Made by a program: the position numbers and the translations under genes. A stretch of DNA of 64,000 bases from Minisyncoccota bacterium (GTDB taxonomy: Bacteria; Patescibacteriota; Minisyncoccia; Phycocordibacterales; UBA9973), in NCBI GenBank assembly GCA_036517535.1, contig DATDVS010000028.1, positions 295-64,294 of the forward strand, read 5' to 3'. Positions 41,729 to 44,491 of the stretch are shown in pieces. Numbering within the stretch: the stretch's first letter is position 1; each line of letters begins with the position of its first letter. Below the pieces are notes generated by a model. It made no database searches. It was not told where the DNA came from and saw only the letters and a list, made by a program, of their open reading frames with translations.

Positions 41729-41908
41729 ATGGATAACAATAATTCTTCAGGTACAAACACCATCCTTATCGTAGTTGTTCTCGTCATCATTGTTGGTTTG
41801 GCAGTCTGGTGGTTTACTGCTAGAAACAATACTAATGACACATCAGGCGTCGATGTAAATGTTACCCTGCCAACAGGAGATGATTCTTCTGGAGGCGCAA
41901 CTCAGTAG
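41729..41908 (+). CDS. small membrane protein (59 aa)
   Basis: Not in the ORF track. MDNNNSSGTNTILIVVVLVIIVGLAVWWFTARNN... has one TM helix. A strong terminator follows. Confidence 0.45.
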   Translation: MDNNNSSGTNTILIVVVLVIIVGLAVWWFTARNNTNDTSGVDVNVTLPTGDDSSGGATQ

Positions 41909-41930
41909 AATTTGAATTAAATAGAAAATA

Positions 41931-41966
41931 AGCAAAAAAGCCCTTGCAATATAGGGCTTTTTTGCT
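41931..41966. terminator. bidirectional rho-independent terminator
   Basis: AGCAAAAAAGCCCT-TGCAATAT-AGGGCTTTTTTGCT, a perfect 14-bp stem. Confidence 0.75.
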
Positions 41967-41994
41967 TGACTTTTACATAAAAATGTGATACACT
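41966..41994 (+). promoter_or_regulatory. sigma70-type promoter with an extended -10
   Basis: TTGACT, 17 nt between hexamers, TGaTACACT. Confidence 0.55.
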
Positions 41995-42070
41995 TGCATT
42001 GTTATCAGGATTGAACCCCTGGTAATCTCTACGAAAAGTTTCGTGGAGTTTGTACATCGAAGGAAGCCAC

Positions 42071-42274
42071 ATGGAAGTCAAGCGACAGGGTGAAATCGCC
42101 TTCTTGCTTTTGAAACATCGCATTCGAAGGGAAGGAGCGACGATCTCGCAGAACGACGCGCGAGAGCTGGGAGACACCGCAAAAGCAATTGGTGTTCCAT
42201 TAGAGGAGCTCAAAGAGTTCGTCAGGCCCCTGCTGCACGACCTCGTCGATGAGTTCCTGTCCACCAAGAAGTAA
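42071..42274 (+). CDS. small hypothetical protein (67 aa)
   Basis: Start taken at Met 8 of ORF 42050-42274, preceded by AAGGAAG 5 nt upstream. Helical-looking sequence with no motif recognised. Confidence 0.45.
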   Translation: MEVKRQGEIAFLLLKHRIRREGATISQNDARELGDTAKAIGVPLEELKEFVRPLLHDLVDEFLSTKK

Positions 42275-42276
42275 TC

Positions 42277-42374
42277 TTGGAAAACTAGGGTGGAGCTTCG
42301 GCTCCCTAAAAGGGTAATTGCATCCCTCGCTTCGGCGAACAGATGCAGAACAAGAACCTAACCCCGTTTTCCAA
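42277..42374 (+). ncRNA. candidate structured RNA (three-way junction), class unknown
   Basis: Closing helix TTGGAAAAC/GTTTTCCAA plus GGGT/ACCC. Hairpin GGAGC-UUCG-GCUCC. Hairpin TGCATC..TCGC-UUCG-GCGA..GATGCA. Confidence 0.4.
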
Positions 42375-42381
42375 AACACAC

Positions 42382-42424
42382 CGGACTGGTTCAGCGCTTG
42401 CGCTGGGCCGGTCCGTTTCTACTT
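42382..42424 (+). terminator. GC-rich hairpin plus T-rich tail
   Basis: CGGACTGG-tt-CAGCG-CTTG-CGCTG-gg-CCGGTCCG, followed by TTTCTACTTTT. Confidence 0.6.
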
Positions 42425-42448
42425 TTACTTCAAAAATTTATAAATAAA

Positions 42449-42457
42449 TGATACAAT
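42449..42457 (+). promoter_or_regulatory. extended -10 element (TGaTACAAT)
   Basis: Lies 9 nt upstream of the ATG at 42467. Confidence 0.45.
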
Positions 42458-42466
42458 ACTACAAAT

Positions 42467-44491
42467 ATGGAGCTCCCGGCATTGCCTATAAATAGGGATA
42501 TTACTTACCTCGGTTTTACCACTTACCGCGACAAGAACCAGCTTTTCGGCATAAAGCGCAAGGATAGGCGCCAGCATGTTTATATTCTCGGAAAGTCCGG
42601 TACCGGTAAATCCGTCCTGATGTTCAACATGATTATCCAGAATATCCTGAACGGCGAGGGCGTGTGCGTGGTGGACCCGCACGGCGAGCTCGTCGAGGGC
42701 GTGCTCTCTGCTATCCCGCCGCATCGCATGAAGGACGTGATTTATTTCAATCCAGCCGATACGGAATACCACATCGGCTTTAACGTCCTCGAATTGATCG
42801 ACCCGAAGTACAAGCACCTGGTGGCCTCGGGGCTCATGGGCATATTTACGAAAATTTGGGCCAACGCCTGGTCGGCCCGTATGGAATATATTTTAAATAA
42901 CTGCATTCTCGCCCTCCTCGACACCCCAGGCACCACGCTCCTCGGCATCCCCCGCATGCTGGTGGACAAGGATTACCGCCAGAAAATAATTTCTAATTTA
43001 AAAGACCCGGTGATCAAGGCTTTCTGGGTCCACGAGTACGAGGCCTGGCAGGATAAATTCAGAAACGAAGCCATCGCGCCGATTCAAAACAAGGTCGGGC
43101 AATTCCTTTCTACCTCAATCATCCGCAACGTCGTTGGCCAGTCGAAAAGCACCATCAACATTTTTGACATAATGAACGAGGGCAAGATTTTCCTCATAAA
43201 CGTTTCCAAAGGACGCATCGGCGAGGACAACTCGGCCCTACTCGGAGGCATGATCATTACCAAGATCCAGCTTGCCGCCATGGAGCGCGTGCGCATACCG
43301 GAGGAGGACCGTCGGGACTTTTATTTATACGTCGACGAATTCCAAAACTTCGTTACCGATGCCTTCGCTGGCATCCTCTCGGAGGCCCGAAAATATCGCC
43401 TGAACCTCACCGTGGCGCACCAGTATACTGCTCAGCTTGTCTCGGACAAGAGCTCGGCCGTGCGCGATGCCGTATTCGGCAACGTGGGTACGATGATCGT
43501 TTTTCGCGTAGGCGCGGACGACGCTGATTTCCTAGAAAAAGAATTTGAACCGGAGTTTACTCCGCAGGACATCGTGAACCTGCCGAACTACAAGATATAC
43601 CTGAAGCTCATGATCGACGGAGTGACCTCGCGGCCTTTTTCCGCCAAGACTTTGCCGCCGATACTAAAGCCGAACGAAAAACACATCGAAGAAGAAGTCA
43701 TCCGTTCTTCTCGGGCGCTCTACTGTAAATCCAAAGAAGTAGCCGAGCGGGAGATCAACGACTGGAGCGGGATGTCGCTCGGCGAGGATAATGCCGTCGG
43801 CAATATTGAGAGATTCGATGCGATATGTTCGGTTTGCCGCAAGCCGACCACGGTGCCTTTCAAGCCCGAGCCCGGCCGGCCGGTGTATTGCAAGGACTGC
43901 ATAGCCAAGATGAAGTCCGGCGAGATAAAGCCGATAGAAGGCTCCATGAATCAAATCAAGCGCGATGAAACTAAATTTTACAAGCCGCTTGCCGATCTGG
44001 GCATCGAATTTCAGCAAAAAGCGCCGGAGAGGGAAGGCGAGAATAGAAAGGCTTTCAAGCCCAGAGAAAACAGAGAGAATTTCGCCTTAAAAGAAGTTCT
44101 CAAAAAAACTCTCGGCACGGCCTCTGTTCCCGTGGAGCCAGTTGCCCCCACCCCGCCTCCCGCAATTTCACTTGATTCGCTTAAATCTAAAATGAATCCT
44201 TCGCAAAGCTCAGGACCAAAGGACCGCGGAGCCAGCCATGCGGACATGGATAAGCTGAAGAATTTTATTGAAGAGAAAGTTATCGAACCCGAGAAAGCTA
44301 CGCCGGAGCAGCAAAATTCCTCGCGCTTTACCCGTCAAAATCCGCCGGGCTCCGACGCGACTCAGAATTCTGCTGCTCCGGCTCCGCGACCCGATTCACC
44401 ACCCAAGCCTAACCCTTCGACAGACTCAGGGTCTTCGGCTAATAAGCCTCGGGAAGTTCCGGAGGACGTGCTAAGAAAAATTCTAGAATAA
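42467..44491 (+). CDS. TraD/TrwB/VirD4-like (type IV coupling-protein-type) P-loop NTPase, no TM segment, C-terminal zinc ribbon and Pro-rich tail
   Basis: 674 aa. Walker A ILGKSGTGKS, VVDPHGE, Walker [12 protein letters not shown], and AHQY. Ribbon CSVCRKPTTVPFKPEPGRPVYCKDC at nt 43826-43900. Confidence 0.75.
   Translation: MELPALPINRDITYLGFTTYRDKNQLFGIKRKDRRQHVYILGKSGTGKSVLMFNMIIQNILNGEGVCVVDPHGELVEGVLSAIPPHRMKDVIYFNPADTEYHIGFNVLELIDPKYKHLVASGLMGIFTKIWANAWSARMEYILNNCILALLDTPGTTLLGIPRMLVDKDYRQKIISNLKDPVIKAFWVHEYEAWQDKFRNEAIAPIQNKVGQFLSTSIIRNVVGQSKSTINIFDIMNEGKIFLINVSKGRIGEDNSALLGGMIITKIQLAAMERVRIPEEDRRDFYLYVDEFQNFVTDAFAGILSEARKYRLNLTVAHQYTAQLVSDKSSAVRDAVFGNVGTMIVFRVGADDADFLEKEFEPEFTPQDIVNLPNYKIYLKLMIDGVTSRPFSAKTLPPILKPNEKHIEEEVIRSSRALYCKSKEVAEREINDWSGMSLGEDNAVGNIERFDAICSVCRKPTTVPFKPEPGRPVYCKDCIAKMKSGEIKPIEGSMNQIKRDETKFYKPLADLGIEFQQKAPEREGENRKAFKPRENRENFALKEVLKKTLGTASVPVEPVAPTPPPAISLDSLKSKMNPSQSSGPKDRGASHADMDKLKNFIEEKVIEPEKATPEQQNSSRFTRQNPPGSDATQNSAAPAPRPDSPPKPNPSTDSGSSANKPREVPEDVLRKILE

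Follow-up and report, generated by a model that had tools for sequence, protein, structure and literature searches.

The stretch of DNA analysed here, called the window in what follows, is 64,000 nucleotides long and belongs to a Minisyncoccota bacterium (assembly GCA_036517535.1, contig DATDVS010000028.1). It holds, between a dnaK gene and an ATPase gene, a small open reading frame (ORF) of 67 codons immediately followed, at 42277-42374 of the plus strand, by a segment that is shown below to be a copy of a conserved and hitherto undescribed RNA, about 100 nt long, with a three-way-junction fold. The surrounding motifs all lie on the plus strand. A sigma-70-like promoter found in a promoter scan (TTGACT-17-TACACT, with TG before the -10 box, 41966-41994) comes right after an upstream bidirectional terminator (41929-41968), and a Shine-Dalgarno-like (SD-like) sequence, GAAGGAAG (42059-42066), closes a 5' untranslated region (UTR) some 70 nt long and leaves 4 nt to the start codon, ATG, of the ORF (42071-42274, with a product beginning MEVKRQGEIAFLLLKH and a TAA stop codon at 42272-42274). 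Beyond the RNA, a terminator scan located an intrinsic terminator (42382-42428), in which a hairpin of 15 bp (42382-42415) leads into a U-rich tail, UUUCUACUUUUACUU coming after the hairpin; this agrees both with RNAfold and with the bipartite, CUUG-looped hairpin and T-rich tail of an earlier reading of the locus from its letters only (the original prediction). Read from its motifs, 41966-42428 (about 0.46 kb) is one predicted, self-contained transcription unit, the mRNA of which encodes the 67-aa protein and has 42277-42374 as its 3' domain.

The fold of the RNA

When the plus strand is folded from 42270 to 42430 with RNAfold, its energy is -65.2 kcal/mol, as compared with -42.7 +/- 3.9 kcal/mol in 200 dinucleotide shuffles, none of which equals it (z = -5.75), while the reverse strand of the same segment folds more weakly (z = -4.19). 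The long-range helix of 9 bp and the two hairpins that the original prediction had placed behind the stop codon are indeed present, and RNAfold agrees with them. The closing helix, P1, begins 2 nt past the stop codon, and associates TTGGAAAAC (42277-42285; UUGGAAAAC as RNA) with GTTTTCCAA (42366-42374; GUUUUCCAA); all of the 8 pairs of P1 that were modelled covary in the family described below. It is extended by GGG(T) at 42288-42291 facing (A)CCC at 42361-42364, the GGG (42288-42290) being the 5' strand of P1b, the outer pair of which is AU in 60 members and GC in 31, while the U that follows, U42291, is near-invariant (98% of members). Hairpin P2 (GGAGC-UUCG-GCUCC, 42292-42305) has five pairs, which all covary, under a loop that varies in the family. 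The strand C-UAAA (42306-42310) then leads through the junction to P3a, a helix of 3 bp between AGG (42311-42313) and CCU (42357-42359), with an outer pair that is AU in 58 members, CG in 19 and GC in 18. P3a opens into an internal loop with two conserved strands, GUAAUU (42314-42319) and AGAACAAGAA (42347-42356), and the loop in turn carries the distal arm P3b/P3c, GCAUC-CC-UCGC-UUCG-GCGA-ACA-GAUGC (42320-42346), which covaries and measures from 19 to 69 nt in the family; it had been predicted with one more pair at its base, as UGCAUC-CC-UCGC-UUCG-GCGA-ACA-GAUGCA (42319-42347). The 3' side of the fold (42357-42365) consists of the CCU of P3a, a junction AA, the CCC strand of P1b and a bulged C, and contains a C-C-Y-C run that is 93-97% conserved.

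Within the internal loop, UAA (42315-42317) faces GAA (42354-42356) beside P3a, and both are conserved. In the UAA/GAN motif, opposed 5'-UAA-3' and 5'-GAN-3' strands lie beside a helix and form a cross-strand stack of adenines; the possible resemblance is a tentative lead.

Two of the signs that had first drawn attention to the segment have to be reconsidered. UUCG and CUUG loops are present in the window, as had been noticed, but they are specific to this copy: loops vary freely in the family, and UUCG caps P2 in just 2 of 98 members. The segment is richer in GC than the AT-rich spacers, as had also been noticed, but with a GC content of about 0.50 it is the same as neighbouring coding DNA. 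What the family does conserve is the junction together with the internal loop, to which the original prediction had drawn no attention. There is one copy of the RNA in this genome of 605 kb.

Conservation and covariation across the family

Homologues were first sought with the 67-aa ORF and with the DNA in 201 genomes of the family, where the early weak hits of the one and of the other coincided, in that an identical DNA word of 18 nt was found some 150 nt downstream of a homologue of the ORF. A pattern search with the two conserved strands of the RNA, conducted on contigs of one genome per species, then gave at least 120 stretches, one of which (L035; L and G numbers are our handles for loci and genomes) is a chance match. 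The family is present in at least 118 species-level genomes, nearly all of them Patescibacteria. Alignments made with MAFFT only misaligned P1 and P2, and RNAalifold recovered just 7 pairs from them; a covariance model was therefore built from 7 co-linear members, for which the structure was written by hand, and then iterated, which recovered 98 of the 100 sources searched, with scores of 24-117 bits.

The fold that emerges comprises the closing helix P1/P1b, the hairpin P2 and the arm P3 with its internal loop, and its near-invariant strands are UAAA-NGG-RUAAUU and AGAAYAAGAA-CC. In the model alignment, 91.2% of the cells assigned to pairs hold a standard pair, against 62.0% after shuffling, and the covariation score of 0.697 compares with 0.206 for shuffled alignments, no one of 500 shuffles attaining the observed value; sliding the partners by 1-3 columns brings it down to 0.07-0.12. 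Changes on both sides of a pair are found in all seven helices, as in the central pair of P2 (GC in 41 members, AU in 24, CG in 21, UA in 7). Among the top 26 pairs of a mutual-information analysis with average product correction, 24 are pairs of the model, and this analysis of the family alignment revealed no pseudoknot and no pairing between the 5' and 3' parts of the transcript. Minimum free energy folding of single sequences, which uses no alignment, recovers P1, P1b, P2 and the distal part of P3 in about 70% of members, the support for the 3-bp P3a coming from covariation only. Conservation also extends beyond the strands used for retrieval, to the U after P1b already mentioned, to the A before P1b (85%) and to the C-C-Y-C run of the 3' side. 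Among the eight hits retrieved by the model rather than by the pattern, the junction, whose UAAA belonged to the retrieval pattern, is kept in seven, while L133 has AAAAAGGGUAAGU.

The strand on which the RNA is made is indicated in several ways. It lies on the strand of the ORF, a U-tail comes after it, the plus strand folds better, and G-U pairs (106) outnumber A-C pairs (69), which supports the transcribed-strand orientation. P1 and P1b are asymmetrical, with a pyrimidine-rich 3' strand and a 5' strand that is 75% purine. Two subtypes can be told apart: type A, to which the window copy belongs, has a short P3 arm, and in type B this arm reaches about 54 nt and has a conserved sequence of its own. 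This long arm contains two conserved copies of a word resembling GCCGAUCCGC (UAGCCGAUCCGC..GCCGAUCCGC), as seen in L008:1755-1822, in L010 (minus strand, 1353-1431) and in others.

The segment recurs in over 100 genomes and compensatory changes abound among its copies, which bears out the view that it is a functional structured RNA and not random intergenic sequence; covariation, which had been proposed as a check, is found in every helix. That the original prediction could match it to no class was equally borne out by a scan against Rfam. At the gathering score, the whole window yields just a tRNA, located elsewhere; at E <= 10, the interval 41900-42500 gives, on 42277-42374, just a 14-nt fragment of CrcZ with 9.8 bits; and for 20 diverse members searched at E <= 0.1 no family of Rfam 15 (4227 models) falls on the motif. 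Viral contigs gave no match to the pattern, and no earlier description of the motif was found in the full-text literature, the coverage of which is incomplete. We hold it as almost certain that this is a real, conserved RNA and that it belongs to the transcript of the small ORF.

The cassette, its protein and its distribution

The layout was the same in each of the homologous loci that were read first: the ORF comes at the start, followed by ...AGGU-[hairpin]-C-UAAA-NGG-GUAAUU-[hairpin]-AGAAYAAGAA-CCN-..CCU.. and by a terminator. A match to a hidden Markov model (HMM) of the ORF family lies directly 5' of the RNA in 109 of 121 loci, with a median of about 7 nt between the stop codon and the first position of the model, and in about a quarter of the loci the ORF extends into P1, P1b or even the loop of P2. 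A hairpin with a run of U is found within 120 nt past the RNA in 104 of 122 loci, its end mostly falling 23-46 nt after P1; upstream, a promoter-like site lies within 250 nt of the ORF in 79 of 98 loci, as compared with 25 control regions, and an SD-like site in 71 of the 98. A stable 3' UTR or a small RNA had been among the options of the original prediction, and this option fits the anatomy, the RNA being placed, in nearly all loci, after the stop codon of a small, conserved ORF and ahead of a terminator.

The proteins of the family have 65-90 residues, with the consensus M..ER.GEIAL..LK..L...G..L.P..KRE.GN.AK..GI..EEL.EF...I..EL..E.F., and 1407 cluster representatives were collected at E <= 1e-3 among 1.84 billion proteins. 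The AlphaFold2 model is a three-helix bundle (helices 3-21, 29-40 and 44-64) with a predicted local distance difference test (pLDDT) score of 86.7. Nothing significant was found for the family in Pfam, NCBIfam, PHROGs or PADLOC, and all the hits of a profile search of the PDB were designed helical repeats with a generic helix-G-helix word in common. Forms with two or three domains in tandem exist, and they hint, as far as sequence can tell, that the single-domain protein may work as a dimer. Two tandem domains of 65 aa accompany a single RNA in L002:958-1461, L059:4231-4647 and L111:2974-3423, and L004 has three stretches matched by the HMM.

The carriers, according to record titles, are Parcubacteria/Paceibacterota, Moran-, Falkow-, Kerfeld-, Komeili-, Wildermuth-, Yonath-, Taylor-, Nealson-, Colwell-, Campbell- and Portnoybacteria, together with many bins that are generically labelled as candidate phyla radiation (CPR). 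The organism labels of many bins are unreliable. Archaeal (DPANN) carriers were considered, and rejected for two contigs: that of the Nanoarchaeota-labelled L023 (JAGVNG010000018.1) has a bacterial TrmD and bS16, that of the Bathyarchaeia-labelled L025 (DATGZC010000052.1) has a type I signal peptidase, and in both cases the label or the binning is probably wrong; the neighbours of the Woesearchaeota-labelled L032 are uninformative. The oddly labelled bins, several 'Gammaproteobacteria' and 'Bdellovibrionales' included, have sizes of 0.6-1.0 Mb, with the exception of a 3.2-Mb bin in which the hit sits on a contig of 4 kb.

Within the phylum the distribution is patchy. An even set of 401 genomes has the RNA in 6 (1.5%) and the protein in 10, and among 41 congeners of the window genome the RNA is present in 3. 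The orthologous site upstream of the ATPase gene was compared in 12 congeners (L149-L160). Seven of them read dnaK, terminator, promoter, ATPase, with nothing between; G605 has a type A cassette at this very place, as in the window, and G158 has there a divergent type B cassette beside an ATPase that is 94% identical; in G143 and G030 the cassette is elsewhere in the genome. The protein tree shows that protein and RNA subtype are inherited together, type B corresponding to one protein clade (support 99/92), and in it the nearest group of the window protein is made of copies whose bins bear the labels Moran- and Colwellbacteria, the protein of its congener falling elsewhere. No mobility gene and no flanking repeat was seen at the cassette sites that were compared. 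From a site that is empty, occupied or reoccupied in otherwise orthologous surroundings, and from the protein tree, we conclude that the cassette is an accessory unit which is gained, lost and replaced, and that it is probably exchanged laterally.

Several observations on the surroundings of the cassette may be recorded here. The dnaK-ATPase spacer (window 41729-41908) is a variable spot in the genus: beside the cassettes, it holds an ORF of 59 aa, membrane-like, in the window, an ORF of 92 aa in G158, and genes of a Cys-rich family or other genes in G143, G102 and G061. The promoter-like site of the ATPase gene of the window, TTCAAA-17-TACAAT, ends 9 nt before the ATG at 42467, with no SD between (42429-42469), and the ATPase mRNA may be leaderless or nearly so, or its true start may lie further downstream. 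Two genomes contain two cassettes (L070 and L073 on JAAZAU010000008.1; L173 and L174 in G634) and in each of them one copy is degraded, L070 retaining only the last 17 codons and the RNA, and L173 having two in-frame stops, with a high-scoring RNA in both of these copies. In G137, a transfer-messenger RNA (tmRNA) gene (L004:305-696, 137.6 bits) is located just upstream of the cassette, and tRNA genes stand beside it in L124, L032, L136, L091, L134, L092, L109 and L116. Finally, the 5' UTR of the small ORF has a match to the DUF805b RNA of Rfam (RF02914) above the gathering score in L032:444-478, on the minus strand (47.5 bits), and another in L148:1177-1211, on the plus strand; the 5' UTR of the window, around 42034-42058 (UAC-GAAAAGUUUCGUGGAGUUU-GUA), resembles a degenerate version without an Rfam match. 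As a general part of the cassette this motif was discarded, since the pattern occurs in only 3 of 103 loci (L032, L100 and L125).

Possible functions of the RNA

The best explanation that we can offer, still a tentative one, is that the RNA is a selected, compact non-coding RNA (ncRNA) domain, made for binding, of a transcript with two functions, the small ORF being the other. The invariant, A-rich junction (UAAA) and the internal loop (RUAAUU / AGAAYAAGAA) would hold the three arms so as to create a surface or pocket for specific binding, the most likely partner being the co-encoded three-helix protein, or else another cellular factor or target. That the RNA works by binding its own protein is a putative step of this scheme, which we regard as credible but less likely than not. 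As P1 starts 0-15 nt past the stop codon, or else the stop codon falls within the 5' half of the RNA (about a quarter of loci), a terminating ribosome would have to melt P1 and P1b; the RNA would then fold only on copies that are untranslated or already translated, and folding and translation of the end of the ORF would be mutually exclusive. The downstream hairpin would just end the transcript, and the RNA would have no control over the ATPase gene.

It would be unfair to this explanation not to list what weighs against it. Most members were retrieved with a sequence pattern that demands UAAA.GG.UAAUU and AGAA.AAGAACC, which inflates the apparent invariance of these strands, and the alignment in which pairs were counted is fitted to the covariance model. 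Transcription of the unit, its 3' end and its processing are read from the motifs of promoter-like sites and terminators, which are conserved. The protein is not basic, its median net charge being 0 (about +3.6 in the 40 N-terminal residues and -2.8 in the rest), and Foldseek retrieved from the PDB no hit at E < 1, with weak resemblances to helix-turn-helix proteins and no RNA-binding fold. Furthermore, the two partners may be separated. The protein is found without the RNA in L138, where another gene comes directly after, and in L142-L144, a divergent subfamily in which a plain terminator comes next. Conversely, the RNA is found without the protein in L109 (promoter, SD, a mini-ORF of 7 codons and an RNA of 89 bits), L116 (a remnant of 28 codons, 59 bits), L087 (no ORF, 63 bits) and L133 (no ORF, a degenerate junction), and no homologue of the protein was detected anywhere in these four genomes. 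A purely autoregulatory role is therefore weakened, and an RNA acting alone becomes likelier.

Among the alternatives, the one that had been proposed beforehand, an aptamer and its terminator forming a riboswitch or attenuator ahead of the ATPase gene, deserves next to no credit. It is true that in the window a terminator follows the fold and that the ATPase start comes 50 nt later. Yet in 60 of 108 loci the nearest ORF downstream is encoded on the other strand, the genes found there vary (the ATPase, infC, genes of the other strand), and a clustering of neighbouring ORFs revealed no recurrent family besides the small ORF upstream; the ATPase is downstream only in this genus, in three congeners, and the seven congeners with an empty site have it without the RNA. 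In addition, the ATPase gene has a promoter-like site of its own at 42429-42457, past the terminator, and the latter starts 0-10 nt after P1 without overlapping it, with no alternative pairs that covary. As the RNA is tied to the ORF upstream while the gene downstream is variable, a leader of the ATPase is ruled out for practical purposes. An element acting at the level of DNA, a folded single-stranded recombination site of the attC kind of integrons that would move the cassette, is scarcely more probable: the cassette does come and go at the same intergenic site with no recombinase gene nearby, and a structured element 3' of an ORF is what attC is, but the cassette has a promoter of its own in most loci, whereas attC cassettes are promoterless, there is no conserved core (RYYYAAC / GTTRRRY) at the base of P1, conservation falls on A-rich, unpaired bases, the transcribed strand has many G-U pairs, and flanking repeats were not seen. 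Very improbable too is a self-cleaving or catalytic RNA that would process the transcript, for instance by splitting the ORF from the ncRNA. A three-way junction with a strongly conserved core and a patchy, cassette-like spread recalls the distribution of small ribozyme classes, and no other function has been assigned to this RNA; against this, no Rfam ribozyme was matched, at 41900-42500 even at E <= 10, the hammerhead cores CUGANGA and GAAA are absent, the junction strands being U, C-UAAA and NN, and no conserved cleavage dinucleotide is evident.

Two other possibilities are less improbable. The RNA might be an independent, trans-acting ncRNA, or a small RNA derived from a 3' UTR, with which the small ORF is merely co-transcribed, and which would oppose its C-C-U-C strand to purine-rich ribosome-binding sites or sequester a host factor. 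We consider this improbable on balance, but worth keeping in mind: loci with the RNA only keep promoter, SD and a high-scoring RNA where the ORF is cut to 7 or 28 codons or gone, in genomes that lack the protein altogether, and the 3' strand of P1/P1b is pyrimidine-rich with its conserved C-C-Y-C. On the other side, the RNA abuts the stop codon of the ORF in about 90% of loci and co-diversifies with the protein clade, no target or seed can be named, and the conserved bases belong to the junction and the internal loop, where no single strand is accessible. Alternatively, and this we find unlikely, it might be a cis element of the small-ORF mRNA that needs no protein, either a 3' stability structure that blocks exonucleases or a sensor of a ligand or condition tuning the output of the ORF. 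Its position, always 3' of the stop codon and ahead of the terminator, and its very stable fold speak for such an element, and ligand pockets typically combine loops that vary with a junction that is conserved. But some 25 invariant unpaired nucleotides would be needless in a plain stabiliser, the RNA-only loci have no protein output to tune, and mutual information gives no sign that it pairs alternatively with the terminator or with the 5' UTR.

The binding domain of a dual-function transcript that we prefer can also be placed among known systems. A housekeeping RNA, such as signal recognition particle (SRP) RNA, RNase P RNA, 6S RNA or tmRNA, would be expected to be nearly universal, and is rejected because of the patchy distribution. 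With orphan motifs such as the raiA motif RNA and other Breaker/Weinberg motifs in Rfam, the RNA shares a multi-helix fold defined by covariation, a conserved core with variable peripheral loops, a restriction to a lineage and the lack of an assigned function; it differs in being 3' of a specific small ORF, not free-standing or in a 5' UTR, and in travelling with this ORF as an accessory cassette. Dual-function RNAs (SgrS/SgrT, RNAIII/hld, SR1/SR1P) likewise combine, on one short transcript, a small ORF and a separately selected structured domain, but they act by base-pairing seeds, whereas here it is a folded junction that is conserved, without sequence relationship to them. Autoregulatory structures such as the S15-binding three-way junction and ribosomal-protein leaders also have a small protein beside a junction RNA that may be its binding site, and the covariation of RNA subtype and protein clade is a further likeness; these leaders, however, are in the 5' UTR and mimic rRNA, whereas the present RNA is in the 3' UTR, next to a protein neither ribosomal nor basic, and persists in genomes without it. 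The fbi element of hok mRNA and the anti-SD of the icaR 3' UTR are structured 3' ends of short mRNAs in autonomous or mobile units, and the strand rich in C-C-U-C could in principle pair with an SD, but no pairing of 5' and 3' parts covaries here, the protein is soluble and helical and not a membrane toxin, and no antisense RNA is evident. A type III toxin-antitoxin system (ToxIN) is similarly a patchily distributed pair of linked protein and structured RNA; there, however, a tandem-repeat RNA stands upstream of an endoribonuclease of about 170 aa with the ToxN/AbiQ fold, while here a single, non-repeated junction stands downstream of a 67-aa three-helix protein without match in PADLOC or Pfam, and this class was set aside.

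Since no family described so far accommodates the RNA or the protein, both are called new, while the kind to which they belong may be a known one, for example a protein-binding regulatory element. A bolder proposal, to which we give only slight credence, is that a new class of functional RNA, sensor, binder or catalyst, and a new family of small proteins travel together on a mini-cassette, some 0.45 kb long, that is exchanged laterally. To our knowledge, almost nothing is known of the ncRNAs of Patescibacteria, despite their large share of bacterial diversity. Here is a family with more than 100 members, all the helices of which covary, with about 25 near-invariant unpaired bases, tied to an unannotated family of small proteins; so conserved a core usually goes with a specific ligand, protein or catalytic function. 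A structured domain that is conserved at the very 3' end of an mRNA and abuts the stop codon would be rare among bacteria, and the pair, with its 100 nt or so and its 67 aa, is small enough for direct synthesis, probing, binding and crystallisation. RNA and protein behave as a tiny accessory cassette without a recognisable mobility gene. If the bolder proposal holds true, these ultra-small symbiotic bacteria would have at their disposal a portable ribonucleoprotein, or a function borne by the RNA only, the folding of which would be gated by the terminating ribosome.

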